This document shows positions 10,249-41,868 of a stretch of 64,000 nt of DNA, piece by piece. The position numbers and the translations under genes were made by a program. This stretch comes from Deferribacterales bacterium. Its GTDB lineage: Bacteria; Chrysiogenota; Deferribacteres; Deferribacterales; Geovibrionaceae. The notes below the pieces were generated by a model, which was given only the letters and a program-made list of their open reading frames with translations, had not been told where the DNA came from and made no database searches. The stretch lies in NCBI GenBank assembly GCA_050253075.1, contig JBFWJS010000001.1:480001-544000 (forward strand). Direction: 5' to 3'. Position 1 is the first letter of the stretch. The number at the start of each line of letters is the position of its first letter.

Positions 10249-11484
10249 ATGGTCAAAGTAGCCATATACGCGATCGGAAGCGAGCTCCTTGAAGGAAGCA
10301 TCGTGGATACTAACTCTGCTTGGCTTGGTAAAAAGCTGACGAAAGCGGGTTTCGACGTGGTAGATGTCAGGCTTATCCCCGACCATAAAGAAAAGATCGT
10401 CAGACTGCTGAGGGAAGGGATGGATGCTTACGACGTTATCCTTACCACAGGCGGACTCGGACCTACATTTGACGACCTCACCGCTGAGACACTCGCCGAG
10501 GCATCCGGCAGAGAGTGGGTTATGCACGAAGAGGCAAGAGCCCACATGATCAAATGGCTCGAAAAGCGCAAAGTAACCATAAAACCCGCCCACGAGCGTC
10601 AGGCTCTCCTGCCGAAGGACTGCATAGTTTTCCCCAATACGAAAGGAACGGCACTCGGCTTCGGAGTGGAGGAGAAGAACTGTATAGTCATCTCCATGCC
10701 GGGCGTGCCTTATGAAATGTACACCATGTTCGAAGATTATGTTATGCCGTTCATGCTTAAAAGGTTTGAGCTGAATGAACGTTTCAGCATAGACGTCCGC
10801 ATCGGCGGACTCCCCGAAAGCGACATAGACGATGTAGTCCGTGCCATGAATCTGCCCGAAAATGTCGAATGCATTATAAATGTTTCCAAAGGCGAATGTC
10901 TTGTAAAACTGAGAGGCTTTGACAGCAGCATCCTCGAAGGATACGCCGCCCACATTAAAGACAGCTTTCCAGATCATTTCGTAGGATTCGGCGAAGACGG
11001 GCTGGCGCATATGCTCATCCGCACGCTGAAGGATAAAGGAATGACTATCTCCGTCGCAGAGAGCTGCACTGGGGGAATGATAGGTCAGGAACTGACGACC
11101 GTATCAGGAGCGAGCGAAGTTTTTATGGGGGGCGTGATATCCTACAGCAATGACGTGAAGGAACGCATCCTCCGTGTGCCTAAGAATATTATGATAAACC
11201 ACGGCGCAGTGAGTGAAGAAACAGCGAAAGCTATGGCTGTCGGCGCTGCAAACACATTACAGACCAGATGCGCAATATCCGTCACAGGCGTCGCAGGCCC
11301 CGACGGCGGAACACCCGAAAAGCCTGTCGGCACAGTCTGCATAGGCTACTGCATAGACAGAGAGGTCGAGACCAGAAAGCACTTCTTCGCAGGGGACAGA
11401 GAAGCCATCCGCACCCGAGCCATGAAGACAGCCCTCCGTGAGATGACAGAACTTCTTAAGAAAAAGTACACAATAGATAAATAG
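10249..11484 (+). CDS. cinA: CinA family protein (MoCF-like domain + NMN deamidase)
   Basis: IGSELLEG, TGGLGPTFDDLT, AESCTGG, GAVS, TGVAGPDGG; start moved to 10249 after GAGGTG RBS. Confidence 0.93.
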   Translation: MVKVAIYAIGSELLEGSIVDTNSAWLGKKLTKAGFDVVDVRLIPDHKEKIVRLLREGMDAYDVILTTGGLGPTFDDLTAETLAEASGREWVMHEEARAHMIKWLEKRKVTIKPAHERQALLPKDCIVFPNTKGTALGFGVEEKNCIVISMPGVPYEMYTMFEDYVMPFMLKRFELNERFSIDVRIGGLPESDIDDVVRAMNLPENVECIINVSKGECLVKLRGFDSSILEGYAAHIKDSFPDHFVGFGEDGLAHMLIRTLKDKGMTISVAESCTGGMIGQELTTVSGASEVFMGGVISYSNDVKERILRVPKNIMINHGAVSEETAKAMAVGAANTLQTRCAISVTGVAGPDGGTPEKPVGTVCIGYCIDREVETRKHFFAGDREAIRTRAMKTALREMTELLKKKYTIDK

Positions 11485-11494
11485 TAATTTTACC

Positions 11495-11523
11495 TTGCAA
11501 TATAATTTGCATAAGTATAGGAT
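11495..11523 (+). promoter_or_regulatory. Putative sigma70 promoter of the polysaccharide locus
   Basis: TTGCAA-17 nt-TAGGAT; overlapping palindrome TGCAA-N6-TTGCA. Confidence 0.5.
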
Positions 11524-11598
11524 TCAGAAGTCTTAATATACAAATTTTCAGATTTCTGGATCTAAGCCACGCTAATTAGGCTAATAAAAATAGGTTGA

Positions 11599-12555
<957 letters not shown>

Positions 12556-12566
12556 AAGGATATGTT

Positions 12567-13649
12567 ATGAAAATCATTACCGTTGTCGGTGCACGACCGC
12601 AATTTGTGAAAGCTGCTGCAGTTAGCAGAGAGATAGCTCGTCAAAAAACACTAGGCAAAGATATTGAAGAGGTTATAGTTCATACGGGGCAGCACTTTGA
12701 CCCGAATATGAGTGATGTTTTCTTTGAAGAAATGTCTATCCCTAGACCAGATTACAACCTTAATATACACGGTCTTTCTCATGGTGCGATGACAGGCCAA
12801 ATGCTTGAGAAGATCGAGGAAGTGCTATTAAAGGAAAAGCCTGACTGGGTTCTTGTATATGGTGATACGAACTCGACCATTGCCGGAGCCTTAGCTGCCA
12901 AGAAATTACATATCAAAGTTGCACATGTTGAAGCAGGTTTGAGATCCTTCAATATGAAAATGCCTGAAGAAATTAACCGTATCCTCACTGATAGAATAAG
13001 CGATCTCCTTTTTCCGCCTACTGATACTGCGGTGGAAAATCTAATGACTGAAGGATTTGATAAAATTGGAGTGAGCATTGTGAAATGCGGCGATGTTATG
13101 TGTGATGCAAGTGTCTATTACGCCCCTTTCGCAAAACAGCCTTCGTTTATGGATAATGCAGACGAACAGTTTGTTCTCTGCACGATACATAGAGCAGAAA
13201 ACACTGATGACAAGGATAGAATAACTTCAATTATTGAGGCACTCAACGAGGTGGCTAAAGATAAGCGTGTTGTTCTGCCTTTGCATCCTAGAACAAAGAA
13301 TATATTAGCAAAACTTGGACTTAATGTTGAAAAACTTACTATAGTCGAGCCTGTAGGTTATTTTGAGATGATATGGCTTCTGCAGCATTGTGACTTAGTC
13401 CTTACGGATAGCGGAGGTTTACAGAAGGAAGCATTTTTCTTTGGTAAATACTGCGTGACTATGAGGGATGAAACAGAATGGACAGAGCTTGTTAAAAGCG
13501 GAGTCAACTGTCTGGTCGGTGCAGATAAAGATTCTATAGTCAAGATTGTGACTAGCGGTAAAGCTCTGTCTGACGAGGTCAAGCAGCTTGACCTTTACGG
13601 CAGAGGGGATGCCAGTGAGAAAATAATCGAAGGATTGTTAAGACAATGA
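12567..13649 (+). CDS. wecB: Non-hydrolysing UDP-GlcNAc(3NAc)A-type 2-epimerase (WecB/WbpI-like)
   Basis: VGARPQFVK, HTGQHFD, GDTNST, HVEAGLRS, PEEINR, TDSGGLQKEA. Confidence 0.9.
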   Translation: MKIITVVGARPQFVKAAAVSREIARQKTLGKDIEEVIVHTGQHFDPNMSDVFFEEMSIPRPDYNLNIHGLSHGAMTGQMLEKIEEVLLKEKPDWVLVYGDTNSTIAGALAAKKLHIKVAHVEAGLRSFNMKMPEEINRILTDRISDLLFPPTDTAVENLMTEGFDKIGVSIVKCGDVMCDASVYYAPFAKQPSFMDNADEQFVLCTIHRAENTDDKDRITSIIEALNEVAKDKRVVLPLHPRTKNILAKLGLNVEKLTIVEPVGYFEMIWLLQHCDLVLTDSGGLQKEAFFFGKYCVTMRDETEWTELVKSGVNCLVGADKDSIVKIVTSGKALSDEVKQLDLYGRGDASEKIIEGLLRQ

Positions 13650-14428
13650 ACCCATTCAAGCAGATTTATTTGTATAGGAAATTGATTTGGGCGACCACTT
13701 TATATGATATTAAAGTAAAAAACGCCGGATCGATGCTAGGGCAAATATGGCTTATATTATACCCCCTGCTTTTTTTGGGAATGTATGCCGTCGTTTATCT
13801 GATGATTTTTAAAATAAGGCTTCAGATAATGTCGCCTTACGAATATGTTTTGCTTATCTTTTGTGGTTTGATACCCTTCCTGTCATTTGCTGACGCAATA
13901 GGCAGAGGAGTAACTTCTGTTACCTCAAATGCTAATCTAATTAAAAACACGTTGTTCCCCATAGAATTCATACCGATTAATATCGTTTTGTCCTCGCAGG
14001 TTATATTGATCGTCGGTTTTAGTATACTGTCAGTTATATTATTTTTCATGGGTCGGCTTGGCTGGTTTTATTGGGTTGGGATTCTATTATTTTTTGAACA
14101 GATAATTTTTACGATTGGTCTTGTATGGATTCTAGCCTCGCTAAATGTATTTTTCAGAGATTTAGGGCAGATAATATCAGTGGTGATACTTATGCTGATG
14201 ATGATCAGCCCGATTGCTTATACTGAAGATATGATACCTGAAACATTGCGCACGGTGCTTTATTTCAATCCACTGTACTATCTTATAATGCTTTACCAGA
14301 AAGCATTTATGTTTAACACCTTAGATGTGAAACTGTTCATTGTTTTCACAATACTTTCTTTTGGACATTTTTTGATTGGATACCATGTTTTTGTAAAACT
14401 TAAAGGGGTTTTTAGCGATTATGTATGA
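13646..14428 (+). CDS. wzm: Polysaccharide ABC transporter permease
   Basis: GS.LG.IW, NLIKNTLFP.E, FFRD, SPIAY, NPL motifs; ~6 hydrophobic segments. Confidence 0.92.
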   Translation: MNPFKQIYLYRKLIWATTLYDIKVKNAGSMLGQIWLILYPLLFLGMYAVVYLMIFKIRLQIMSPYEYVLLIFCGLIPFLSFADAIGRGVTSVTSNANLIKNTLFPIEFIPINIVLSSQVILIVGFSILSVILFFMGRLGWFYWVGILLFFEQIIFTIGLVWILASLNVFFRDLGQIISVVILMLMMISPIAYTEDMIPETLRTVLYFNPLYYLIMLYQKAFMFNTLDVKLFIVFTILSFGHFLIGYHVFVKLKGVFSDYV

Positions 14429-16205
14429 TCAATTGTCAATAAGTGTCAAAAATGTCTCTAAAATGTATAAAATGTATAAAAATAATTTTGCTAAGATTAT
14501 GGATCTCCTGGGATTTCCTAGCAGTAAGAATTATAAAGAATTTTGGCCACTTAGAGATATTAATTTAGATATTAAAAAGGGTGAGAAGGTTGGCATAATT
14601 GGTCAGAATGGAGCAGGTAAAACGACTTTGCTCAGCATAATTTCGAATAATATCAGACCCACTGAAGGGATGATAGATGTGCATGGTCATGTAAATGCTC
14701 TTTTTACTTTGGGCACTGGATTTCATCCGGAATTTTCAGGTAGGAAAAACATAAGATCCTCTCTTGCTTTTCAAGGAGTAATCGGTGCTGATGTTGTGCG
14801 TATAGAGAATGAGATCATAGAGTTTGCAGAACTGGAAAACTTTATCGATCAGCCTGTTAAGACATATTCAGCCGGTATGTATGCCCGACTCGCTTTCACT
14901 GTGGCAACTGCAATAGAACCGGATATTCTTATAATTGATGAAATACTAGGTGCAGGAGATGCATATTTTGCGTCAAAAGCATTAGATAGAATGAAAAAGC
15001 TGACAGGAGGAGGGACAACGGTTCTTTTTGTCTCTCATGATTTATCGTCAGTGCAGAGAGTTTGTGACAGGTGTATTTGGATAGATAAAGGTAAAATTAG
15101 AGAAGACGGTGCAACTTTAGACGTAATTAAATCATATAATGCCGATGTTAGGAAAAGGGAAGAACTTAGGCTCCTTTCACATAATAGCGGCGTAAAAATG
15201 AATAATATAGACAGTAATTCCAGTCAGCTGCTTTTTAGGTTTATTACATCCGATCAAAGAGCACCTGAAACAAAAGGGCTATTCATACATAAAATCAGTT
15301 TGTTTGTTAAAAATAAACTTTATGCAGAAATTAATGTCGGTGACTCAATGGATAACTCTAAAGAATATGACGGTTATATAATTACAGATGATAAGATAAA
15401 CTGGTCTGATAGTATTAAGAAAGAAGGCTTATGGGCAAGGGAATTTAGAGATTTTGGCGCTGAGTATGTCCATGCCATAGGTGTTTTTGTTGTACCAAGC
15501 GTAATAGACTATAGAAATATCAGCTTTGCTATTGAGTATTTTGACGATTTTGTTGATGAAGTAAATTTTGAGTTTTTTGATACTAACAAAAACAGTTATG
15601 TCAATTTAGCTAATTTAAACTCATCAGGTACAGAAAAATGGCTCTCTCAAACTGATATATCTTTAAAACCGAAGGCTCTTTGTGAAGAGAGTAATTCCGG
15701 TGATGCCCCGCAAACTGAAGAAGACAAGCTGTTTAGTACTGATGTCTACGGCACAGAAGAAATGATGATTACCAATGTCAGTTTTCTGTGTAAAGATTTA
15801 GAAGAGAGATTCGTATTTACTCTTGGTGATGCTCTAACTATTCGGGTTGATTATAAATGTTTTGAAGAAATTTATAATCCGGTTTTTGTGGCTGCAATAT
15901 ATAACAGTGAAGGTGTAGCAGTATCGCAACTGATAGATAAACAAGCAGGATATAGCCTTGCCCGTGCACAAAAACGAGGTTTTGTCGAATTCATTATTGA
16001 TAATTTAAGAATCGGACAAGGGGAGTATTTAGTTTCAGTAGCAATATTTCACGATGTAGATCTTGCAAATCCGGTTGAACAGAGAACATATTGTTTACAT
16101 GATAGGAAATATAAATTCAAAATTGTTCAGCCACACGGGCTTAATATGAACTTAGGGCTTTTGCAACAAGATTTTAAGGTGGAATACAAAGATGGAAATG
16201 ATTAA
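14421..16205 (+). CDS. wzt: Polysaccharide ABC transporter ATPase with an inserted domain and a C-terminal Wzt_C-type carbohydrate-binding domain
   Basis: GQNGAGKTT, YSAGMYARLAF, IIDEILGAGD, VSH; ~350 extra C-terminal residues ending in YGT.E..I..V...GEYLVSVAI. Confidence 0.9.
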   Translation: MYDQLSISVKNVSKMYKMYKNNFAKIMDLLGFPSSKNYKEFWPLRDINLDIKKGEKVGIIGQNGAGKTTLLSIISNNIRPTEGMIDVHGHVNALFTLGTGFHPEFSGRKNIRSSLAFQGVIGADVVRIENEIIEFAELENFIDQPVKTYSAGMYARLAFTVATAIEPDILIIDEILGAGDAYFASKALDRMKKLTGGGTTVLFVSHDLSSVQRVCDRCIWIDKGKIREDGATLDVIKSYNADVRKREELRLLSHNSGVKMNNIDSNSSQLLFRFITSDQRAPETKGLFIHKISLFVKNKLYAEINVGDSMDNSKEYDGYIITDDKINWSDSIKKEGLWAREFRDFGAEYVHAIGVFVVPSVIDYRNISFAIEYFDDFVDEVNFEFFDTNKNSYVNLANLNSSGTEKWLSQTDISLKPKALCEESNSGDAPQTEEDKLFSTDVYGTEEMMITNVSFLCKDLEERFVFTLGDALTIRVDYKCFEEIYNPVFVAAIYNSEGVAVSQLIDKQAGYSLARAQKRGFVEFIIDNLRIGQGEYLVSVAIFHDVDLANPVEQRTYCLHDRKYKFKIVQPHGLNMNLGLLQQDFKVEYKDGND

Positions 16206-19200
16206 TTATTATGAGCAAAAAGAACTATGGGATAGAGACTTAACCCCACAAGAAGCTGAAAGGATTGATTTAGTGAAGAAAATCATTCCTGAGGATGTGG
16301 TCACTATTCTAGATGTGGGTTGTGGCAACGGCGCACTTACTAACGGATTAGAAGGATACGATATTACAGGCTTAGATAAAAGTGTCGAAGCATTGAAATA
16401 TTATAAACATAAAAAACAACACGGGAGTATTGATGAGCTCCCTTTCGAAGATAACTCATTTGACTTTTTAATATGCAGTGATGTGCTTGAGCACTTGGAT
16501 GCTAATGCTTTTATTAGTGCTATCAATGAATTAAAGAGAGTTTCAAAAAAATATATACTTATTATCTCGCCAAATGAAGAAGATCTTGCCGCTAATTTTG
16601 TCAAATGCCATACATGTAGTCATATATTCAATATCAACCTTCATGAAAGAAGTTTAGGCTTTAATGATTTGGTAAGTCTGTTTAGCAGCGATTTTGTTAA
16701 CTTGTTATATACATATTTCGGAGATAAATGGGCCAATGAGCCAGAGGTAAAATATAAGTTCAAGAGGGCTTATAATAAAGGATACAAGAGCTGGGAACAC
16801 TCTGTATGTCCATGTTGTGGAACAAAACAGAAAACTATTACAGATAAATCTGATCCAGCGACTGATATTGTAGTGAACCCACATGTCATGGGATACTACA
16901 ACCACTCTACAGAGGTTATGATCTTATTTTGTGATGCTGCCCAGTCGGGTGAATTTTATAATAACAATATTGAAGACAGTAAAATCGTTGTTTTGAATGA
17001 TAGTGCCAATAAGGATATAACTTTTATCCATAGGCAGTATATAGACTGTAGAAAGCCTCTTATTAAACAATATGCAGAGGCATATCCTCAAATTGCTTAC
17101 CTTTTAAACACTGATAGAGATTCATGGAGCTCAGCAGATGGGCAAACAGTATTAAAAATAGGTGAGAACAATAACTTTGCACAAGTGTATTTCCCTGCAG
17201 AAGAAGGGATGAAGTTCCTGCACCTGAAAGTGAAATTTGAGACCTATAGCAAAGTTAATGTGAATGTATACGATGCTATAGACTCATACAGAAGATTAGG
17301 TGTTATAAGCAACACCGAACTAGATAACTTTGTTGAGTATAGATTCGAATTGCCTTCTGATCTGGTATTGCCGAACGAGGGCTTAATTATAGAATTTGCT
17401 GTTGCAACCGGTAAAGGTGAGATCAGACTTGTCTTCGATAAACTTTACATTGATCATGATTTATATAGTGTTAAATGTGAAAAAGATTTCAAAAGTAATG
17501 TTTTCGGAAAAAAGATGATTGGACATGTTGTAGGTGACAAGATCCATATATCAAGTGGTTACTATGCCGATCTCGGATTAGATGATTATTTATTAATTGA
17601 TGGAAACCTATATTGGAATGTTAGCAATTCATTTGAAGTGTTTAATAAAAATAAACCAATACATGACAAAGATTACTTCTTTTATCGACTTATAGGTCAT
17701 TATGACGAATCATTTAGAGAGCTAGAAGCTAAATTGGCAGGAGCATTTAAAGCTCGTGAGGATGATAGTGTTGATTACGCTAAATATATGCAGAGCAATA
17801 CCGAGATCCTCCAAAAAATGACTGCTTTCAGATCAGATGTTAGCCAATCTATGGGCGAGTTTGAAAATAGCTTATCCAGCATACGGGCCAATGTGGAGCA
17901 GTTTGAAAATGCCATATCTGCAATTAAGGCGAGCACTTTAGATGCTGATTCTAAAATGCAGAATAATCTTGATTCAGCTGTGAAGCAGTTCGAAGACACC
18001 TTATCCAAAATGCAGGCAAATATTATAGATGCTGATTCCAAAATCAAAGATAAATTGGAGACTGTTGAACATCAGGTAGAAAGTAAAATAAACTCTGTTA
18101 ATCGTAAACTTGCGTGGTTGGAAGAGGCCTATTCAAATGTTCTAATAAGTGAAGAAAGCTACGATCAATTACGATCACAAATATTCACAATATCCAACAA
18201 TCTACAAAATGCCATATCTGCAATTAAGGCGAGCACTTTAGATGCTGATTCTAAAATGCAGAATAATCTTGATTCAGCTGTGAAGCAGTTCGAAGACACC
18301 TTATCCAAAATGCAGGCAAATATTATAGATGCTGATTCCAAAATCAAAGATAAATTGGAGACTGTTGAACATCAGGTAGAAAGTAAAATAAACTCTGTTA
18401 ATCGTAAACTTGCGTGGTTGGAAGAGGCCTATTCAAATGTTCTAATAAGTGAAGAAAGCTACGATCAATTACGATCACAAATATTCACAATATCCAACAA
18501 TCTACAAAATGCCATAGACAACAAAGCAGTGTTTAATTACAGGATTGGTTTAGTCGACGAGCAGCTAAAAGACGCTCAGCAATATTATGAAAAGATACCG
18601 GATGTGGAAAAGCAGATATATGAGCTTCAGTCACAAGTTTATACGTTATCTAATACGTTACAGCAGAGTATAGATAATCGCTCAATACTCAGCTATGACA
18701 TGTCTGTCATCTCAGATAGATTTAAAAATACAGCGTGCAAGATCAAGTCAAAACTTTCAAGATTTGTCAAAAAGACCATTTCGGCAACTCGGCAAATGAA
18801 AGTAGTAGCACTGGCTCAACGGACACATGTTGACACATCTATGAAGCATTTATTAATCCTCACTCCGGATGTTAGGATTGATAGGCGTACTGTGCAGATG
18901 TGCGAAAGTATGATCAAAGAGTTTGGTATTAGATGTACTATTATCGCTGCCTTGGAAGCCGACGATGATTTTGTTTCAGACAACCTCATTGTTAAGAGGA
19001 TTTCCCCTTATGATATTTGTGGTGACGGCGGAACAGACTGCTCTTGGCAGGCATCCAAGTGTTTCGACTTAGAGAAATTCTACTGGCTTCATAGCAAATA
19101 CTTAACAAAGGCTTTAGAAGAGCAAGCAGACTATGTTATGTGCTGTGATCTGCCTGTGCTGCCATGTGCAGTGCATGTCGCAAAACATATGGGTGTTCCG

Positions 19201-20007
19201 TTAATATACGATGCCCATGAGCTATACCCCGAGCAGGCATGTTTCTCAGATGAACAGAGAAGTCTTTATAAGAGTATAGAAAAGTACTACATAGGCTTAC
19301 CTGATTTAGTAATAACAGTGAATGATAGTATCGCCATAGAAATGGGCGAAAGGTATGGCATAGAAAAACCTAGTGTTATACTTAATGCCATTGATGCTCC
19401 GCAGAACTTTGATGTAGACAGAAAGTATGACTACTTCAGAGAGCAATTACCAATAAGAAGTGATCAAAAGATCGTACTCTTTCAAGGCGGTTATTCCCCA
19501 AATCGTAATCTTGAGCTTTTTGTCAGATCGGCAAGACACATAAAAGACAGCAGTGTTGTTCTTGTGCTGATGGGATTTGGAGATTTTGGTGCTGAGCTTG
19601 AAAAGATTGCAAAAGAAGACAAAACAATAAACGAGAAAGTCTTCTTCTTTCCTGCCGTTGAGCAATCAGTGCTCCTAGAGTACTCTGCCTCTGCAGATGT
19701 GGGTATAATTCCATATCCTCACGTTGATCTTAACAGCTATTACTGCACTCCTAATAAGCTTTTTGAGTTTATACAGGCAGGACTGCCAATAATTGCCAAT
19801 GATTCTCCTGAACTGAATAGATTTGTTAAAGAAAATAATATTGGATACTCCGGTACTATATTGTCCGAAGAGGATATTGCGTCTCTTATAGATGAATATT
19901 TTGAACAAAATATAGATTATAAGGATAATATAAAAGAGGTAAGGCCGAAAATAAACTGGCAGACGGAAGAAAAGAAATTTATTAGAGTTATCAAGGAGCT
20001 GTTGTGA
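16192..20007 (+). CDS. Multidomain SAM methyltransferase / beta-sandwich / coiled-coil / GT4 glycosyltransferase (putative chain terminator-ruler-polymerase)
   Basis: ILDVGCGNG, LPFEDNSFD, DVLEH, two CxxC; heptad-rich central region; C-terminal YDAHE, FQGG, TPNKLFEFIQAGLP (GT4). Confidence 0.85.
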   Translation: MEMINYYEQKELWDRDLTPQEAERIDLVKKIIPEDVVTILDVGCGNGALTNGLEGYDITGLDKSVEALKYYKHKKQHGSIDELPFEDNSFDFLICSDVLEHLDANAFISAINELKRVSKKYILIISPNEEDLAANFVKCHTCSHIFNINLHERSLGFNDLVSLFSSDFVNLLYTYFGDKWANEPEVKYKFKRAYNKGYKSWEHSVCPCCGTKQKTITDKSDPATDIVVNPHVMGYYNHSTEVMILFCDAAQSGEFYNNNIEDSKIVVLNDSANKDITFIHRQYIDCRKPLIKQYAEAYPQIAYLLNTDRDSWSSADGQTVLKIGENNNFAQVYFPAEEGMKFLHLKVKFETYSKVNVNVYDAIDSYRRLGVISNTELDNFVEYRFELPSDLVLPNEGLIIEFAVATGKGEIRLVFDKLYIDHDLYSVKCEKDFKSNVFGKKMIGHVVGDKIHISSGYYADLGLDDYLLIDGNLYWNVSNSFEVFNKNKPIHDKDYFFYRLIGHYDESFRELEAKLAGAFKAREDDSVDYAKYMQSNTEILQKMTAFRSDVSQSMGEFENSLSSIRANVEQFENAISAIKASTLDADSKMQNNLDSAVKQFEDTLSKMQANIIDADSKIKDKLETVEHQVESKINSVNRKLAWLEEAYSNVLISEESYDQLRSQIFTISNNLQNAISAIKASTLDADSKMQNNLDSAVKQFEDTLSKMQANIIDADSKIKDKLETVEHQVESKINSVNRKLAWLEEAYSNVLISEESYDQLRSQIFTISNNLQNAIDNKAVFNYRIGLVDEQLKDAQQYYEKIPDVEKQIYELQSQVYTLSNTLQQSIDNRSILSYDMSVISDRFKNTACKIKSKLSRFVKKTISATRQMKVVALAQRTHVDTSMKHLLILTPDVRIDRRTVQMCESMIKEFGIRCTIIAALEADDDFVSDNLIVKRISPYDICGDGGTDCSWQASKCFDLEKFYWLHSKYLTKALEEQADYVMCCDLPVLPCAVHVAKHMGVPLIYDAHELYPEQACFSDEQRSLYKSIEKYYIGLPDLVITVNDSIAIEMGERYGIEKPSVILNAIDAPQNFDVDRKYDYFREQLPIRSDQKIVLFQGGYSPNRNLELFVRSARHIKDSSVVLVLMGFGDFGAELEKIAKEDKTINEKVFFFPAVEQSVLLEYSASADVGIIPYPHVDLNSYYCTPNKLFEFIQAGLPIIANDSPELNRFVKENNIGYSGTILSEEDIASLIDEYFEQNIDYKDNIKEVRPKINWQTEEKKFIRVIKELL
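17906..18516 (+). repeat. Exact in-frame 300-bp tandem duplication
   Basis: 17906-18216 is identical to 18206-18516; the 11-mer AAAATGCCATA occurs at 17906, 18206 and 18506. Confidence 0.97.
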
Positions 20008-23000
20008 AAAAAATATTTATATTGTTTATATTGTTTGTTGTAACATCTGTATTCGGGCAGGGCCTTGATGTTAATTTGAAGGGCGAATTAGTCAATTATA
20101 ATTTCCATTATAAAGCAGGCAGCACAATTATGCCTGTGTCTATAACACCGTATGCGGATGGATATTATTTAATTGCAAATTACACGGATGTGTTTTTACT
20201 AAATACCGATACCGGTGATATGTATAAATTTGACATAATTCGTAATGCAGATGAATCAAAAAATTTAGACAGTTTCCATAAATATATTAGAAGTGCTAGC
20301 ACTAATTCGAATGATTTACAGTCACCAAATGTATTATTTATGCCAACAGGATTATTTTATTCCCGAAAATATGAAAAACTGTATGTTGCCAACTATAAGG
20401 GGGATAATATTTTGATATTCAATGTTGACTTGGCTTCGAAAACATTACTTTATCAAGGTGAAATTCAAACAAAAAATACAAAAGGACCAGAAAATGTTTT
20501 TGTAACCAATGACGGAAATTATTTAGCGTGTGCTAATTATGATGGAAGTAGTGTTTCTTTGTTTGAACTTAGTACATATAAAAAGTTTAAAGAGATATGG
20601 AGCACAGATATAGGTCAGGCGCATGGTGTTACAGTTCAAGATGGGTTTGTATATGCTACGGGACTGACAAAAAGGAAAATATACAAGCTAGACATTAAAA
20701 ATGGAAAAATAGTAAAATCTATTGGAAAAATTGGTTCAGACCCTTCAGAAAACGGTTTTTTGTGGCCGACTTCAATAAACAATTTAGACGATGAAAGCCT
20801 TGTAGTGAGTGATGCACATACTGGATACATTTATATTTTAGATAAAGATAGCCTTCATATAAAGTCATACTTTGGTGGGAACTCTCTGGGTTATAATTAC
20901 TTGCATATGCCATATTGTGTTGTTGTTGATGGAGAGAGATATCTTATTGCAAGTACTTTCCAAGATCGAATTGTAGAGGGAAGCATAAAAAACTGGGCTG
21001 CTGAAAAAAGTTTTATTTTTTCAGGTAGGAAATGGGCGTCATTAGATAATAAAGAAATAAATGCATATATAGATAATTATGATGTGTATATTTATAAAAA
21101 AGGGCCAAAACTAAAAATATTAGGCAAAGAATACACTATGGGTTTTGGACACCTGTATCCTGTTGATAAAGATATACCTATATTGAGGTTACCAGATACT
21201 AAATCAATTAATAATAACTCTGGATACTTTTACTTTACAGATTTATTGAAAATTAAGAATTCTAATGTCTTATTTAGTCCTCAATCTAAAGCTGCATTGT
21301 ATATAAAAGAAGTAAAAGGCGTTAATTATGTATTTCCTTTTGAGCTAGATTCAACTGATTATTGGCTGTATGATGGTGCTTTAATTAATTCTATTGGACA
21401 ATTTGACTTATCCACTGTTATGGATGTATTTGATTCTAAAATAGATAATATAGAAAAGTCTAGACATAAGAATGGATTATTGGAACTAATGGACTTCTAC
21501 CAAATATATAATAATGAGAAATGGCCTTTTGTTGATTTTAGTTTTGACGAATTCAATATAAAATTTCAGGAAGTATTTAATACAGCTGCTGGGAAAGAGT
21601 TTTTAAAAGCTTATAATCAAATGTCTATTGATACGTTGCCTGCTGAGATAAAAAATATAGCCGCAAAGTACTACCGAACAGTATTAAGAAATAATTATGT
21701 TGATATGAATGAGTTTTGTATTGTGCAAATGCTAACGGGCTTTGTTACTGATGCTCAAATATTCCAATATAACAGATACATTTTTGAAGGCTGTCAGGGC
21801 ACTAACTATTATGCTGGCTATAGTCCCAAGGCACTTGAAACCGTGTCTATAAACGATTATGTGTCAGCAAATTCTATTCAAGATTCATGTTTTCTTGTTG
21901 AAAATATGAATTATTATGGAGATTTAAAGATAAATATCACATGGTATGATTTAGATCATTACGGTGTAAATTTTGATATTTATGGTTTTAGTGAAAATAA
22001 TAATGAATTTTTATTATTGCCCGTAAAGAATAATGAACCAAGAAATGATAACGGACTAGCAGTAAATACATACCATATTAAAACTAAAAATAAAATTACT
22101 AAACTTAAGTTTATTCTTAAAAGCGCTAATAAGCAAAATCGCTTAATAATGAGAGAATTTGCTATAGCCGAGGACGATAAACAGAATAAAAAAAATACTA
22201 GTAATGCATTTAGCTTAAATGAGCTAATATCTTTAAATAAAAAAGTGAATCAGACAATTATATATGGAACAGGGAAAGATTTTAGAGAGGATCTAATAAA
22301 TGGTAAAGATTATGCCAGTTTGATAAAGGAACTCGGAAGTGGCCATTGTGGTTATTATACTTACCTTTTAATGAGAGAGATTAAGTCTAATAATGAATGG
22401 CGTGGTTATGATATAAAAACATATGATAATAGAGTTCATAGCGTTATAGAAGTAAATATTGGAGGTAAATGGCTAACATTTGATCCAACTCTAGGAATTT
22501 ACTATGACAAGAGTATTAATGAGCTGATTAGTAATAATGAGACTCAACTGAATGGTAGTATTTGTGATCAAGTAGAGATGAGGTTTAAAGGATATTGCGG
22601 CAACTTTTTCTTCAAAGCTGTAGAAAGTTTGAAAATGTATAATTCGTTTGCTGGATATGAGTATAATAAACTTATTAAGAGTAACGTGTTAGTAGGCTCT
22701 GCTGATAGAGTAGCTAAAGGTCACGAACTTGAAAAACTTTATGATGGTAATGCAAACACTTACTTCTCTTCAGCGGGTAATAAAATAGATATCAAACTGA
22801 ATAAAATGCAAGTGTACAAAATTACACTAGAAGCATTGAGGTATTATGATAAGGAAAAAAATGATGAAATCATTATATCGCCTAAGGAAATGGTCTTAAA
22901 TTTATACTGTGATGGTGTTTTAGTTGGGAATTATAAACTTGTAGCTCAGGAACCAAAACTAATGAGTGAGATATATTTTGATAATTCTACTTTGATAGAT

Positions 23001-23075
23001 CAAATAGAGTTGAAAATGGACAAAATGTATAATACGAACTTAGGTTTTGTCCTTAAAAGCATAGATTTATTTTAA
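20004..23075 (+). CDS. Secreted protein: NHL/YVTN-like beta-propeller + beta-sandwich + transglutaminase-like (Cys-His-Asp) domain
   Basis: Signal peptide MKKIFILFILFVVTSVFG; repeats MPTGL..LYVANY, GPENV..LACANY, WPTSI..LVVSDA; GHCGYY...HSVIEV...KWLTFDPT. Confidence 0.7.
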   Translation: MKKIFILFILFVVTSVFGQGLDVNLKGELVNYNFHYKAGSTIMPVSITPYADGYYLIANYTDVFLLNTDTGDMYKFDIIRNADESKNLDSFHKYIRSASTNSNDLQSPNVLFMPTGLFYSRKYEKLYVANYKGDNILIFNVDLASKTLLYQGEIQTKNTKGPENVFVTNDGNYLACANYDGSSVSLFELSTYKKFKEIWSTDIGQAHGVTVQDGFVYATGLTKRKIYKLDIKNGKIVKSIGKIGSDPSENGFLWPTSINNLDDESLVVSDAHTGYIYILDKDSLHIKSYFGGNSLGYNYLHMPYCVVVDGERYLIASTFQDRIVEGSIKNWAAEKSFIFSGRKWASLDNKEINAYIDNYDVYIYKKGPKLKILGKEYTMGFGHLYPVDKDIPILRLPDTKSINNNSGYFYFTDLLKIKNSNVLFSPQSKAALYIKEVKGVNYVFPFELDSTDYWLYDGALINSIGQFDLSTVMDVFDSKIDNIEKSRHKNGLLELMDFYQIYNNEKWPFVDFSFDEFNIKFQEVFNTAAGKEFLKAYNQMSIDTLPAEIKNIAAKYYRTVLRNNYVDMNEFCIVQMLTGFVTDAQIFQYNRYIFEGCQGTNYYAGYSPKALETVSINDYVSANSIQDSCFLVENMNYYGDLKINITWYDLDHYGVNFDIYGFSENNNEFLLLPVKNNEPRNDNGLAVNTYHIKTKNKITKLKFILKSANKQNRLIMREFAIAEDDKQNKKNTSNAFSLNELISLNKKVNQTIIYGTGKDFREDLINGKDYASLIKELGSGHCGYYTYLLMREIKSNNEWRGYDIKTYDNRVHSVIEVNIGGKWLTFDPTLGIYYDKSINELISNNETQLNGSICDQVEMRFKGYCGNFFFKAVESLKMYNSFAGYEYNKLIKSNVLVGSADRVAKGHELEKLYDGNANTYFSSAGNKIDIKLNKMQVYKITLEALRYYDKEKNDEIIISPKEMVLNLYCDGVLVGNYKLVAQEPKLMSEIYFDNSTLIDQIELKMDKMYNTNLGFVLKSIDLF

Positions 23076-23078
23076 TAA

Positions 23079-24281
23079 ATGAAAAGTATTATTTTTATAA
23101 CATATGATTCTCCATATATTGATAGGCGTATTTTGTTAAATGCAAAAATCGCCACAAATATGGGTTATAAAGTGGATATTGTTTGTCCTTGTGCAGATAG
23201 CTCTGTCGACTACGGAGATATCGGGATAATCAACTTGTTTGATACTGTGAATAAAAATAATATTATTCATATTAAGGACCGGATTAAAAAATTTGCCCCT
23301 AACTGGTTCTTCAGATTTGCAAGATTATGCTATAAAAACTTTCTCAATAAAGGCGAGCATATTCCGTTTAAAGAAGCGATGATTGAAAAGGTACTTACTT
23401 TGAAAGCGGATGTCTATGTTGCTAATGATCTTACAACCTTGCCTGCCGGCGTCGCAGCTAAAAAGAAATTTTCTGCAAAGCTAGTTTATGATGCCCATGA
23501 GTTTTATACGGAGCAGATCACTTTGTCAGAAAAGGACAAACACATATTGTCCGAAGTTGAAAAAGATTTAATACATGAGGCAGATAGTATAATTACAGTT
23601 AATGAAGATATTGCTGGACTTTTTACGGAACGCTACGGATGTGCAGGCATAACAGTGATACAAAATATCGTTATATGCGATAAACCGTCTGTACTCTATC
23701 TACATGACCTGATAGGACTTGAAAGAACAGCTAAGATTGTTTTATTTCAAGGTGGTTTGATAGGAAACAGAAACCTTGAAAGTTTAATACATATTGCATC
23801 GAGACTTCATTCGGCTGTTGTCGTGCTCGCAGGGTGGGGAGATAAAGAGAAACAGCTTAAAAAATTAGCTGAGTCGATGAAGATATTGAATAGTAAAGTG
23901 TTTTTTGTCGGTAAAATTTCTCAGGAAGATCTGGTCGCATACGCCGGTTCGGCATCAATTGGTTTAATACCTTATTCAGCGATTGATATTAATACGCAGT
24001 ATTGTACCCCAAATAAACTATATGAATACCTTTGTGCAGAGGTGCCAATTGTTGCGAATACAGGGCTCAAAACGGTTGACCGCATAATTAAAACACTAGA
24101 TTTGGGCATTGCAATCGATTTTAGTAGTTATGATGAAGCAGCCGTTGCCATTGAGAAATTGGTTAAGGATGACGATAAACTTGCCAGATTTAAAGATAAT
24201 ATTAAAAATAATAAAGAATTGTTTTCTTATAATACGCTTGAAAAAGCCTTTGTAGAAATAGTGAAATCATTGGAGATATAA
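23079..24281 (+). CDS. GT4 glycosyltransferase
   Basis: IDRR, YDAHE, FQGG..NRNLE, YCTPNKLYEY. Confidence 0.9.
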   Translation: MKSIIFITYDSPYIDRRILLNAKIATNMGYKVDIVCPCADSSVDYGDIGIINLFDTVNKNNIIHIKDRIKKFAPNWFFRFARLCYKNFLNKGEHIPFKEAMIEKVLTLKADVYVANDLTTLPAGVAAKKKFSAKLVYDAHEFYTEQITLSEKDKHILSEVEKDLIHEADSIITVNEDIAGLFTERYGCAGITVIQNIVICDKPSVLYLHDLIGLERTAKIVLFQGGLIGNRNLESLIHIASRLHSAVVVLAGWGDKEKQLKKLAESMKILNSKVFFVGKISQEDLVAYAGSASIGLIPYSAIDINTQYCTPNKLYEYLCAEVPIVANTGLKTVDRIIKTLDLGIAIDFSSYDEAAVAIEKLVKDDDKLARFKDNIKNNKELFSYNTLEKAFVEIVKSLEI

Positions 24282-26174
24282 ATGTGTGGATACCTTTCTT
24301 GGATTTCTAAAACAGAAATAAATGATGAGAATTTTAGAGCTTCTCTCAGAAAAATGGATCATAGAGGTCCGGATGATGAAGGCTTTTTCTTTACTGACGA
24401 CAGACATGTTGCTTTCGGACATAAGCGACTTAGCATCATAGATCCGAAGGCTGGTCAGCAGCCAATGAAAAATAGCACCGGTGATATTGTTGTGATATTC
24501 AATGGTGCTGTTTATAACTTTCTTGAGATCAGACAAGAGCTTATTAGCGAAGGGTATCCTCTTAAGACATTTTCAGACACGGAAGTAATTATATATGCTT
24601 ATGAGAAATGGGGCGAAGGATGCGTTGAAAGATTTAACGGTATGTTTTCGTTCGTCATTTATGACAAGAAGAAGCAAAGGATATTCGCAGCTAGGGATAG
24701 AGTGGGGATTAAACCTTTCTATTACTACTCTTCAGGCAAAGACCTTATAATCGCATCTGAAATTAAAGCGATACTTGAGTGTGATGCTGTCGATACGGCA
24801 GTTGATCAAAAGGGGCTCGTAGACTATTTATCATTTCAGTTCTATTTAAGAGATAAAACGCTTTTTAGAAGTATAAACAGGTTGGAACCGGGTCATAGAA
24901 TGCTCGTTGACCTTACAAAAGACGAGATAAAGCCGGAAATATCCAAATACTGGGACGTGCGGATCAAAAATGATAATTCGCTTAAAACGGAAGAGGACTA
25001 TCTTGAAATCTTTATGGAGCTTCTGAATGATTCCATAAGGCTACGTCTTCGGGCTGATGTCCCTCTGGGAGCTCACCTTAGCGGTGGTCTGGATTCATCA
25101 ACTGTGGCTTCTTTAAATGCTGCAATGCTTGATGGTAAACAGATACAGACATTTACAGGCCGCTTTGATGAAGGTACTGCTTTCGATGAAAGCTATTATG
25201 CTAAAATGGTTGCAAATAAAATCAATGCTCAGTACCACGATATCCTTATCGATCATCAGCAGTTCAGGGATAATTTTGAAAAGATCGTCTGGCATATGGA
25301 TGAGCCTGAAGCCGGTCCCGGTGTATTTCCACAGTTCATGGTATCGCAGTATGCGAAAGATCATGTTAAGGTTATCCTCGGAGGACAGGGCGGGGATGAG
25401 CTTTGTGTTGGTTATGTCAGGTACCTTGTTGCCTATTATGAGGAACAAATGCGTGATGCGATCCTCGGAGATAATGCCGCAGTGAATAATATCAGCAATC
25501 TGTCAGAAATGCTGTATCAGCTGGATGGTTATCAGCCTATGATGAAAGAGCAATACGCATCAGGCTTATTTGGCGAATCTTTTGACCGATATTACAAACT
25601 TGTAAACAGGATGGATTCATTGCAAGGGCTCATCAATGGAGATGTTTTCAGCGCAGCCAACTATTCTCCTTATGAAGAGATGTCAGGCTTGTTGGATCAG
25701 TCCGACTTCAAGAACAGCTCCTATGTGAACCAGATGACATATCTTGACTTTAAAACGTCGCTGCAAGGCCTGCTGCATGTTGAAGACAGGACGAGTATGG
25801 CCAGCTCGATTGAATCCAGAGTCCCTCTCTTAGATCATCGTATAGCAGAATTTATATTTAATCTTCCTATGGATATAAAGTTCAAGAATGGGGAACTCAA
25901 ATATTTCTTTAAAAAAGCGATTAAGAATATTCTTCCCGATGAAGTACTGAACAGAAAAGACAAGAAAGGCTTCCCCACACCGTTGAATATCTGGCTCAAA
26001 GGGCCGCTGAATGACTGGGTGAAAGAGATATTAAACGACAAGAGGACAAAAGAAAGAGGCATATTTGAAAGGAAAAGCCTTGAAACAATGGTGGAGTCAG
26101 AAGGCATGTTTAACAGGTCTGTCTGGGGCGTTCTTAATTTAGAGCTCTGGCACAGGCAGTTTATAGATAAATAA
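24282..26174 (+). CDS. asnB: Asparagine synthase-like glutamine amidotransferase (probable uronamide-forming, WbpS/WbmC-like)
   Basis: N-terminal MCG, HRGPD, RLSIID, LSGGLDSS, GQGGDE, E.RVPLLD, KKGF; polysaccharide-locus context. Confidence 0.9.
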   Translation: MCGYLSWISKTEINDENFRASLRKMDHRGPDDEGFFFTDDRHVAFGHKRLSIIDPKAGQQPMKNSTGDIVVIFNGAVYNFLEIRQELISEGYPLKTFSDTEVIIYAYEKWGEGCVERFNGMFSFVIYDKKKQRIFAARDRVGIKPFYYYSSGKDLIIASEIKAILECDAVDTAVDQKGLVDYLSFQFYLRDKTLFRSINRLEPGHRMLVDLTKDEIKPEISKYWDVRIKNDNSLKTEEDYLEIFMELLNDSIRLRLRADVPLGAHLSGGLDSSTVASLNAAMLDGKQIQTFTGRFDEGTAFDESYYAKMVANKINAQYHDILIDHQQFRDNFEKIVWHMDEPEAGPGVFPQFMVSQYAKDHVKVILGGQGGDELCVGYVRYLVAYYEEQMRDAILGDNAAVNNISNLSEMLYQLDGYQPMMKEQYASGLFGESFDRYYKLVNRMDSLQGLINGDVFSAANYSPYEEMSGLLDQSDFKNSSYVNQMTYLDFKTSLQGLLHVEDRTSMASSIESRVPLLDHRIAEFIFNLPMDIKFKNGELKYFFKKAIKNILPDEVLNRKDKKGFPTPLNIWLKGPLNDWVKEILNDKRTKERGIFERKSLETMVESEGMFNRSVWGVLNLELWHRQFIDK

Positions 26175-27385
26175 TGAAAATACTATTTGTTAACGAGTAT
26201 ATAGGAACACCATACCACGGCATGGTGTACAGACAGTACTATCTCGCGAGAGAAATGGTGGCAAGAGGGCATGAGGTCTGGATAGTTACAGCCTCTAATA
26301 CCCATTTGCTGCTTTCACCTCCTAAGGTTGATAAAAACCTTACTCATGATGTTATAGACGGTATAAACTACCTTTGGGTGAAAATGCCGTATTATAAATA
26401 CTCGAAAAGTTTCGCAAGGATACGTAATATGTTCCTATTCATGATAAAACTGCTGCGCCTCGATATCAGTAGGTTTGTCGTGCCTGACTTCATAATAGCT
26501 TCCAGCCCTTCAGTTTTTTCTATAAAAACAGCTCTAAGGTGGAAAAAAAGCACAAATGCAAAAGTTGTATTCGAGATAATGGACATCTGGCCGTTAACGC
26601 TCACGGAGTTTACCGGATTGTCTAAACGGAATCCGCTTATACGCTATATGAAGAGCTGTGAAGAGACTGGTTATCGCAATGCCGATGCAGTTGTTTCGGT
26701 TCTGGGCGGTTTTACCAGATATCTATCTGAGAATGGATACAGTGTGAAAGCCTATGAGTGTATCCCAAACGGCGTCTATCTTAACGAGGATTCGTTTGAA
26801 ACAAGTACAGACTCTAACGACAAGCTGTCAAAGATAGACGGCAACAAGATCACAGTCGGGTATGTCGGTACTCTCGGTATCGCAAATTCGCTGGATAGTT
26901 TTATTAATGCTGCGCTTCTGCTTAAAGAGGACAAACGCTTTCAGTTTGTTCTAGTCGGTGACGGAGGCGAGAGGAGCAGACTCGAAGAGCTCGCCGACGG
27001 TGCAGAGAATATTGTTTTTACAGGTTCTGTGGACAGGAGCGATGTTAAAGCAGTTTATGAGAAACTGGATATATGCTATTTCGGAGTATTGAAAAAGAAA
27101 GTGTTTGAATACGGCATCAGCCCGACCAAGCTACCTGATTACATGTATTCGGGGAAACCTGTGATAGGGGCTGTCTCTGATTATACTGATCTTATCGAAC
27201 GTTCCCGCTGCGGGCTCACAGTTGAGGCCGAGAATATCGAAGAAATAGTATCCGCCATAAAGAAATTAGCGAATGACAAAGAATACTGCAAAGAGATGGG
27301 GGCAAGAGGCCGTTCATACGTCGCTGAGTACTTGTCTTATCCTGCCTTGTCAGAAAAGTTTATTAAATTTCTTCAAAGCCTATAA
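26174..27385 (+). CDS. GT4 glycosyltransferase (WbuB-like)
   Basis: RQYYLAREMV..GHEV, EIMDIWP, IPNG, YVGTLG, SPTKLPDYM. Confidence 0.88.
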   Translation: MKILFVNEYIGTPYHGMVYRQYYLAREMVARGHEVWIVTASNTHLLLSPPKVDKNLTHDVIDGINYLWVKMPYYKYSKSFARIRNMFLFMIKLLRLDISRFVVPDFIIASSPSVFSIKTALRWKKSTNAKVVFEIMDIWPLTLTEFTGLSKRNPLIRYMKSCEETGYRNADAVVSVLGGFTRYLSENGYSVKAYECIPNGVYLNEDSFETSTDSNDKLSKIDGNKITVGYVGTLGIANSLDSFINAALLLKEDKRFQFVLVGDGGERSRLEELADGAENIVFTGSVDRSDVKAVYEKLDICYFGVLKKKVFEYGISPTKLPDYMYSGKPVIGAVSDYTDLIERSRCGLTVEAENIEEIVSAIKKLANDKEYCKEMGARGRSYVAEYLSYPALSEKFIKFLQSL

Positions 27386-27502
27386 ACGATATATTTGACA
27401 ATATTATGACACTGTCTAAAAAAAACAACAGTGCTATTAATTAAATCTGTTGCATTTTGTCCACAATTTTATTACAAATAACTGTTTTGAGCGGAAATTT
27501 AG

Positions 27503-27519
27503 TTGGCATGTTAATTGCT
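27503..27519 (+). promoter_or_regulatory. Sigma54 (-24/-12) promoter upstream of lpxC
   Basis: TTGGCATGTTAATTGCT with exact GG-N10-GC spacing, 26 nt before the ATG. Confidence 0.75.
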
Positions 27520-40524: not shown

Positions 40525-41868
40525 GTGAAAATACCTTTAACGCCTCCTGTTTGCACTGAGATTATGACCTCAGAGTTTTTTAATAAAATGATGAAGTCAG
40601 GGGTGAATGTCACAGATGCAAAGGGCAGATATTTACACTGGGATAAAATGAGACATGCCGTACCTCCTGAGGGTTTTTCACCTGAAGAATATTGGTGTGC
40701 AGTAAAATTCTTGCGTAGCCTGAGAGAGGTCAAACTTCCTATTCTTAGTAAAGAGCATGCAAACTTTGGGTATGTGAATATTGATTATATCTCAAGAGAG
40801 CTCCATTGGCTTGATCAGCACTCTTCCGGCATAATTGAAGGGCCGGAAATATTTAAAAACAAGCGCAGTAAGAAGAAGTTTCTGGTTGGGACATTAATAG
40901 AGGAAGCATTCAGGTCGAGCCAGCTTGAGGGAGCATCAACCACAAGGAGTCGGGCAAAAGAAATGATCCTGCGTAAACAGGAACCTGAAACTATTAGTGA
41001 CAGAATGGTTTATAACAACTATTCGGCAATGGAGTATATAAAAGATATAAAAGACGAACCGCTATCTCTAAACCTCATGAAGGAGATACATAGTGTCATA
41101 ACAGACGGAACGCTTGAGAATAAAGCGTATGAGGGAGCTTTTAGAGACCATAATGACATACGTGTCGAAGATAAGAATGACCACACGGTTCTTCACACAC
41201 CTCCTAGCTATCATCTTTTAGAAGAACGTCTGGGTGCAGTATGTGATTTTATAAACCATGATGACACAGATAAGTTTGTTCATCCGGTACTTAAAGCGAT
41301 TATTCTGCATTTTATGATAGGGTATGAACATCCTTTTGAAGATGGTAACGGGCGTACTGCAAGAGCTCTGTTTTATTGGTTTTGCATGAAGCACGGGTAT
41401 TGGCTAATGGAGTTCTTGTCTATATCAGGTGTAATAAAAGAAGCTCCGATAGCATACTCAAAGGCATATCTGTATACCGAAAACGACGGTAATGATCTGA
41501 CTTATTTTATATTGCATCAAATCAGCGTTGTCAGAAAGGCAATTGAGAATATGATGTCGTATATAAAGAGCAAATCTGAGGAATCGGGTGAGCTCGAGGA
41601 AATGCTCGTCGAAAATAACATACGGCATCATTTCAACAGCAGGCAGCTGGCTCTGCTTCGTCATATGTTTCAGAATAGCGACTATAATTATTCAATATAC
41701 GAACACCAGAGCTACCATAATATTACATACCAGACAGCCAGAAGCGACCTGTTAAAGCTGAGTGATGAGCTCAAGCTCCTCAGAAAGGTTAAGCTAGATA
41801 GCAAAACCTATATTTTCATCCCATATAAAGATCTGAAAGATAGGCTTCAAAATTTAAATAAACAGTAA
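40525..41868 (+). CDS. Fic family protein with C-terminal winged HTH
   Basis: HPFEDGNGRTAR; internal SSQLEG inhibitory-type motif; TYQTARSDL..L HTH-like tail. Confidence 0.93.
   Translation: MKIPLTPPVCTEIMTSEFFNKMMKSGVNVTDAKGRYLHWDKMRHAVPPEGFSPEEYWCAVKFLRSLREVKLPILSKEHANFGYVNIDYISRELHWLDQHSSGIIEGPEIFKNKRSKKKFLVGTLIEEAFRSSQLEGASTTRSRAKEMILRKQEPETISDRMVYNNYSAMEYIKDIKDEPLSLNLMKEIHSVITDGTLENKAYEGAFRDHNDIRVEDKNDHTVLHTPPSYHLLEERLGAVCDFINHDDTDKFVHPVLKAIILHFMIGYEHPFEDGNGRTARALFYWFCMKHGYWLMEFLSISGVIKEAPIAYSKAYLYTENDGNDLTYFILHQISVVRKAIENMMSYIKSKSEESGELEEMLVENNIRHHFNSRQLALLRHMFQNSDYNYSIYEHQSYHNITYQTARSDLLKLSDELKLLRKVKLDSKTYIFIPYKDLKDRLQNLNKQ

Follow-up and report, generated by a model that had tools for sequence, protein, structure and literature searches.

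A predicted O-polysaccharide length ruler from a Deferribacterales bacterium carries two identical, adjoining 300-bp units in the part of its gene that encodes a helical spacer, and this tandem duplication is almost certainly real. The gene lies in a window of 64,000 nucleotides, which is the whole stretch of DNA that was analysed, and its 1271-residue product, P0001, is very probably a terminator-ruler. By analogy with characterized ruler enzymes, the number of units is likely to act as a natural dial for chain length. The use of a coiled coil as a ruler for O-antigen length is already known and was established with engineered insertions and deletions. What this locus contributes is the read-level proof of the junction between two units, the very large single step, and the presence of zero-substitution allele pairs in one protein family. 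A literature search, mostly of the main text of non-subscription papers, found no report of natural repeat-number variation in ruler enzymes, and the natural acquisition and change of ruler length is not addressed in the accessible ruler literature. One study connects chain length with disruption of a methyltransferase and not with the number of repeats (PMC13168486). In the family described below, proteins that otherwise match completely are separated by large and clean natural steps of 100, 79 and 18 aa, and one member, with three units, comes from a deep-sea strain in culture.

The tandem duplication in the DNA and in sequence reads

A preliminary description of the window had reported two identical 300-bp units with an 11-mer at 17906, 18206 and 18506, and had interpreted them as a recent, microhomology-bounded expansion that adds 100 residues without a frameshift; the repeat itself has been confirmed (Table 1), and this interpretation of it is supported. 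The exact match spans 311 bp with a period of 300, and not merely 300 bp, because the 11-mer returns after the second copy, and within the 64-kb window the 11-mer occurs at these three positions only. The reading frame stays open from 16192 to 20007 with residues 573-672 doubled. The two copies show no mismatch in 311 bp, and the duplication is likely recent and perhaps, from the lack of mismatches, very recent. By chance, 11 matching bp at both breakpoints would be expected with a probability of about 6e-6. Such a match fits slippage or microhomology-mediated recombination, and slippage or recombination between two in-frame 11-bp microhomologies is the likely origin. A repeat of this size greatly exceeds chance expectation: in the whole 3.04-Mb genome this is the longest exact repeat with a spacing of up to 5 kb, and among open frames of at least 150 aa an exact internal repeat of at least 20 aa is found in 9 of 4091. 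Elsewhere in the genome (contig C4 of G000, ~254,700-256,600) an open frame of 4112 aa contains extended near-exact repeats with periods of 95 and 283 aa and probably encodes a repetitive surface protein.

The unit also contains an older, diverged duplication of 87 bp, so that the spacer grew in layers. The score of this duplication is 35, whereas 300 codon shuffles reached 18 at most; a weaker 42-bp layer from 17858 scores 13, inside the shuffle range. Short direct repeats are in frame in 7 of 10 cases in the spacer as compared with 8 of 14 and 5 of 7 in the enzyme domains. In-frame enrichment in the spacer is therefore not clearly above that of the enzyme domains, and the reuse of in-frame motifs enters the mechanism below as a presumed step.

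Table 1. Positions of the repeat, the domains of P0001 and neighbouring genes in the window
Feature	Position	Strand	Remarks
wzm, ABC-2 permease of polysaccharide exporter	13646..14428	+	Pfam ABC2_membrane E 7.6e-10
wzt, ATPase with C-terminal Wzt_C carbohydrate-binding module	14421..16205	+	ABC_tran E 5e-20, Wzt_C E 1.8e-17
P0001, 1271-aa methyltransferase / beta domains / helical spacer / GT4; predicted terminator-ruler-polymerase	16192..20007	+	
Class I SAM methyltransferase domain, aa 1-250; predicted chain-capping enzyme	16192..16941	+	Pfam E 9.5e-16
All-beta region, aa 255-480	16954..17631	+	DSSP of model
Helical spacer, aa 493-832	17668..18687	+	long helices in AlphaFold model
Older diverged duplication, 87 bp (29 aa), 67% identical	17892..18081	+	lies inside unit
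300-bp unit, copy 1	17906..18205	+	aa 573-672; without Pro or Gly
Copy-to-copy junction, 49 bp	18187..18235	+	separate contig in two runs, depth 387.9 (X2), 8.9 (X1)
300-bp unit, copy 2	18206..18505	+	100% identical to copy 1
Third copy of unit-bounding 11-bp microhomology	18506..18516	+	
Basic amphipathic helix, aa 843-860; predicted membrane anchor at spacer foot	18718..18771	+	sequence only
GT4 glycosyltransferase, aa 886-1271; predicted polymerase module	18847..20004	+	Pfam PF00534, PF13439
Stand-alone GT4, 37% identical to fused GT4; candidate second polymerase module	23079..24281	+	

The genome is a draft assembly of 17 contigs and the best read holders are metagenome runs, which leaves room for an artefact in which a unit that is single in the cells was doubled by the assembler through a spurious loop. 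We compared the repeat region with Logan contigs, which are not raw reads, from runs X1, X2 and X3. X1 and X2 are metagenome runs that belong to a single study, and the window DNA may have come from them. In both, the contigs split at the repeat into a left flank, a 311-bp piece, the 49-bp junction piece and a right flank, with depths (in that order) of 541.7, 994.5, 387.9 and 547.1 in X2 and of 15.8, 26.3, 8.9 and 16.1 in X1. Since the junction is possible only with at least two adjoining units, the duplication is present in the reads. The junction reaches 71% of the flanks in X2 and 56% in X1, the repeat piece has near double depth (1.83x and 1.65x the flanks, respectively), and library chimeras are not expected at such junction levels. 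An artefact is thus very improbable even though the junction is shallower than the flanks and per-cell copy number is not fixed by contigs, and the early worry about misassembly is largely removed by a junction found at depth 388 and 8.9 in independently assembled contigs. No part of the stretch was found in the contigs of run X3, which is no proof of absence there.

Mean unit copy number as calculated from contig depths is 1.71-1.83 in X2 and 1.56-1.65 in X1, with the proviso that contig depth is not copy number and that library bias is common to both runs of one study. These values argue against a majority of alleles with three or more units, and the depth ratios of 1.83 and 1.65 hint at an admixture of one-copy alleles, which create no new sequence words in contigs. 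A Poisson test of the junction deficit in X2 gives z = -6.7. We do not take this deficit as proof of a mixture because the two estimates of the extra copy disagree (0.71 and 0.83) and library bias is shared; GC content was also rejected as its cause, as flanks of 40% and 36% GC are equally deep. The expansion had been described as reversible, and on this point ratios below two hint at change within the population but do not prove it. A tentative and rather doubtful extension is that this family of rulers is an accordion-type contingency locus, in which in-frame microhomologies in the coiled-coil DNA allow entire blocks to come and go faster than point mutations build up, and that one- and two-unit alleles coexist in the sampled population, with ~70-80% two-unit alleles on a literal reading of the X2 depths. 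If so, there would be two discrete O-chain length classes (from ~35 and ~50 nm rulers) that are open to phage or other selection.

Domains of P0001 and the surrounding gene cluster

Several traits of ruler-terminator systems are found in P0001 and its surroundings: a Wzm/Wzt exporter, a Wzt_C module, an N-terminal terminating-enzyme fold distal to the coil, a long helical segment with coiled-coil periodicity and, by its sequence, a proximal amphipathic helix. The methyltransferase domain is modelled with a pLDDT of 85.5, and its best structural match has a Z of 19.4 (rmsd 3.4, 180 aligned). Generic class I methyltransferases make up its structural matches. Among the matches listed for aa 3-251, the part of the protein that the fold searches covered, WbdD is absent, although the two may still be related. 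Two CxxC motifs, C139/C142 (16606-16617) and C206/C209 (16807-16818), are invariant in 33 aligned methyltransferases and constitute a probable zinc site. No kinase is evident in the model between methyltransferase and coil, where the all-beta region may possibly be a carbohydrate-binding module; its Atlas matches are below 0.9 and are leads only. At the other end of the spacer the amphipathic helix has a net charge of +7 and a hydrophobic moment of 0.63, and the fused GT4 exhibits GT-B-like secondary structure with a pLDDT mostly of 80-95.

The generic structural matches that do not list WbdD, a beta region with no firm match and the existence of homologous methyltransferases that lack a helical tail (three loci, L092, L102 and L103) are features that would also be expected if P0001 were not a chain terminator. 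Its methyltransferase would then modify a precursor or side group, and the spacer would be a scaffold or tether for another kind of glycan, with a length that is no measure of the chain. We regard this as improbable given the genomic setting. The only Wzt_C match in the genome is encoded directly upstream of the P0001 gene, and in homologous loci this linkage is maintained: the methyltransferase is present in 34 of 79 genome loci, and 29 of these 34 have both wzm and wzt, with Wzt_C likewise present in 29. A Wzt_C module implies a capped glycan. Additionally, our search found no Wzz above the cut-off, and an O-antigen-ligase-family gene is located ~6 kb beyond the window.

Next to the P0001 gene comes one for a beta-propeller-like protein of 1023 aa, and after it the stand-alone GT4, an amidotransferase of the asparagine-synthase type and a third GT4 are encoded. 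The upstream genes include those of a Gfo/Idh/MocA dehydrogenase and of a non-hydrolysing 2-epimerase, while a wecA-like gene and a gene that from its sequence we take to be lpxC-like lie downstream. The sugar enzymes of the cluster resemble WbpB, WbpI and WbpS of diacetamido-uronic acid synthesis. The cluster has a GC content of 36.7% as compared with 46.6% for the genome, and the interval from the cinA-like to the lpxC-like gene (11484-27515) is a variable slot: congeners have the same flanks around ~17-37 kb that mostly has no match to this cluster. Such non-matching content between conserved flanks is as expected of an O-antigen locus.

Other features of the region deserve mention in their own right. 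The wzt gene encodes an extra domain of ~175 aa between the ATPase and Wzt_C (15186-15710) that has no match in the 79 homologous loci; most of it is also encoded by a metagenome fragment of 93% identity, and it is possibly a second binding module. The 1023-aa protein (20004-23075) has weak beta-propeller matches, is encoded by the lowest-GC part of the cluster (29-33%), and has matches in 8 of 79 loci as well as a second record with one residue changed. The WecA-like gene (28514-30634) encodes 706 aa, with family matches that span only the first ~320 residues and a long C-terminal remainder. An Acyltransferase-3 / SGNH fusion, a type of protein that often O-acetylates surface glycans, is encoded ~23 kb from the cluster (50817-52796). 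The window also contains a Fic/DOC-domain gene (40525-41868) that is unrelated to the ruler finding.

Unit number among homologues

A protein search returned 44 matches besides P0001, and domain lengths were compared among P0001 and the 20 best of these 44 matches, with the 24 weaker ones left out. In this set (n=21) the spacer ranges from 76 to 404 aa with a CV of 0.54, as opposed to CVs of 0.02 and 0.009 for the flanking domains, and the longest spacer is that of P0001. Eight of the 21 spacers contain exact repeats of at least 8 aa, whereas neither flanking part has such a repeat in any of the 21 proteins. The closest pair to P0001 has enzyme domains that are 80% and 88% identical.

The comparison of orthologues agrees with the earlier suggestion of copy-number tuning in that variation in unit number recurs. 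P0007, from Deferribacteres strain DY0037, is 1237 aa long, and P0008, a Logan protein from 6 contigs, is 1079 aa long. There are no substitutions between the two, and their difference of 158 aa consists of three copies versus one copy of a 79-aa unit. The boundaries of this unit are other than those of the 100-aa unit in the window, and in P0008 an exact repeat of 7 aa flanks the one unit present. For DY0037, sequencing combined Nanopore with Illumina data (bioRxiv 10.1101/2025.03.10.642362). P0008 could be a collapsed assembly; the pipeline behind it broke at the repeat of the window and did not collapse there. Within residues 535-778 of P0007, position 7 is Leu in unit 1 and in the exit, and Phe in units 2 and 3, which suggests that the third copy may have been made from an existing junction, by stepwise growth from one to two to three units.

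A smaller unit varies in other members of the family. P0012 and P0094 have no substitutions between them and differ solely by one 18-aa unit. A cluster named for Campylobacter concisus has 58 members, 15 of which were listed (two of these bear that name), and we used the 11 listed members that are full length and dropped 4 partial ones. These comprise seven proteins of 946 aa and four of 964 aa. They form two haplogroups 17-20 residues apart, each with 946- and 964-aa alleles and with flanking markers of its own; between P0068 and P0069 the 18-aa unit is the sole difference. For both lengths to occur in each haplogroup, the unit number must have changed independently at least twice, barring the collapse of some repeats during assembly. 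The shorter alleles (P0008, 946 aa and 948 aa) have no long-read support that we have seen and could include collapsed repeats, and related sequences are not independent observations.

Variation in length is not universal. In 5 of the 10 clusters examined there is none among the members listed, and in 1 of the 10 the variation is outside of the spacer. For example, the 15 listed of 26 proteins in a Taylorella cluster are all 1125 aa long, with degenerate 29-aa repeats. The invariant clusters, including the degenerate repeats of Taylorella, thus indicate that length variation tracks exact repeats. The O-polysaccharide of Taylorella equigenitalis is presumably a methyl-capped diacetamido-uronic-acid polymer. 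For the P0001 lineage itself, a search of 7998 candidates of similar length and 8000 shorter ones yielded no one-copy allele. Its protein cluster has a single member, 40 related genomes gave no orthologue of full length, and the matches from a metagenome scan, in 44 loci, were distant GT matches only.

In homologous loci where the genes are split, the helical tail remains on the methyltransferase and often ends in a basic helix. Such tails contain units of 7, 14, 21, 24, 48 or 72 aa. Exact DNA repeats of at least 20 bp occur in the tail of 9 of 30 methyltransferase frames as compared with 1 of the 29 frames that come next, and this single case is a continuation of the methyltransferase gene beyond a gap (a hand count from 31 frames tried, of which 30 were counted, with two broken by gaps and one misread). 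Units of 24 aa were noted at loci L062, L066, L072, L077, L079 and L137. In loci from Pseudomonas, Hyphomicrobium and others, long methyltransferase tails appear to consist of a related unit of this length, and an array of 24-aa period is also present in a Rickettsia endosymbiont locus.

Spacer length as a proposed chain-length dial and comparison with known systems

The layout of P0001 matches that of coiled-coil ruler terminators such as WbdD and O7 ORF6, which makes a longer O-chain a likely result of the duplication. Specifically, we propose with moderate confidence, by analogy with these systems, that P0001 builds and methyl-caps an ABC-exported O-polysaccharide and that the gain of 100 residues raises modal chain length; given that P0001 is a terminator-ruler, it is quite probable that an added unit would shift chain length. 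The fused GT4 and the neighbouring GT4 would extend the chain at the membrane while the spacer would keep the methyltransferase at a distance that, by arithmetic for an extended spacer, is ~50 nm with two units and ~35 nm with one. Capping and transfer to the Wzt binding module would occur only for chains that reach the methyltransferase. With ~0.5 nm per sugar, one more unit would correspond to up to ~14-15 nm, or roughly 30 sugars. Coiled-coil coding DNA would re-employ short in-frame motifs, so that expansions would keep the frame and roughly keep the helical register, and a tandem copy could collapse again.

Evidence on the shape of the spacer comes from an AlphaFold model that is of low confidence in this part, with a pLDDT of 59-68 over most of the units and below 50 from aa 743 onward. 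The monomer model consists of helices, and a monomer carries no oligomer geometry; a trimer prediction of aa 540-830 scored 0.00, which counts neither for nor against an oligomer. The unit has a hydrophobic period of 3.56, a value reached by 0 of 1000 shuffles, and is devoid of Pro and Gly. Short helix breaks are modelled at 524-528, 649-653 and 749-754, the latter two amounting to one break of 5-6 residues per unit. The gain of 15 nm proposed at the outset therefore holds as an upper bound, with ~14 nm of helix left per unit. We also considered whether steps of 100 or 79 aa preserve the helical register and found this uninformative, because any number greater than 59 can be composed of 7s and 11s.

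The main rival to a chain-length effect is that the duplication is real but a nearly neutral, tolerated expansion, either because kinetics or stoichiometry set chain length or because the unit folds back on itself, as the break within each unit could allow. The low pLDDT of the spacer and matches to apolipoprotein-type bundle profiles, which are below cut-offs, are compatible with such folding, and the five-fold spread in spacer length among homologues suggests weak constraint. Polymerase occupancy also shapes the size distribution in WbdD systems (PMC11231755). However, in WbdD, the coil of which is ~20 nm, insertions in the coiled coil raise and truncations lower modal chain length (PMC5082667). 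The terminator-distal layout is the same here as in WbdD, and the unit is helix-compatible with coiled-coil periodicity. We thus consider near-neutrality unlikely and favour a ruler whose length matters. The preliminary description had asked whether the repeat is a chain-length switch; that word goes beyond the data, and "mutable dial" fits. It is now directly testable whether the ruler rule extends out to 50 nm and whether surface glycan length is varied by repeat number. There is also a warning that ruler length may be misreported by short-read assemblies.

P0001 can be compared with two groups of known systems. In contingency loci and the VNTRs of surface-protein stalks, in-frame tandem units grow and shrink by slippage or recombination. 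P0001 differs from these in that the variable part is the measuring device in a biosynthetic enzyme, and that the output would be graded glycan length instead of on/off expression. Among ruler enzymes, and as far as the accessible text of the cited papers goes, WbbB of Klebsiella pneumoniae O12 combines terminator, coiled-coil ruler and polymerase in one polypeptide (PMC11231755), as P0001 is predicted to do. WbbB adds a beta-Kdo cap (GT99) and polymerises with GT102 and GT103, whereas P0001 has a methyltransferase and a single GT4, which rules out a WbbB-type enzyme with an N-terminal beta-Kdo transferase and two C-terminal GTs. K. pneumoniae O7 ORF6 shares with the predicted layout of P0001 an N-terminal methyltransferase, a predicted Ig-like binding module, a central coiled coil, C-terminal glycosyltransferase modules, one stand-alone GT and a wzm/wzt cluster (PMC11231755). 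ORF6 contains a kinase and two GT2 modules, while P0001 has one GT4 and no kinase evident in the model, and the perfect 100-aa tandem duplication of the P0001 spacer contrasts with the accessible ORF6 text, which mentions no natural variation in unit number. Lastly, WbdD (E. coli O9a/O8, K. pneumoniae O3/O5) is a methyl-capping terminator with a coiled coil and a terminal amphipathic membrane helix (PMC5082667, PMC11231755), and the split homologues of P0001 have exactly this layout. WbdD is separate from the polymerase and its coil is shorter than the 35-50 nm that the P0001 spacer would span. Moreover, the changes in length described in the available WbdD text were engineered, whereas the P0001 family varies naturally in whole repeat units.
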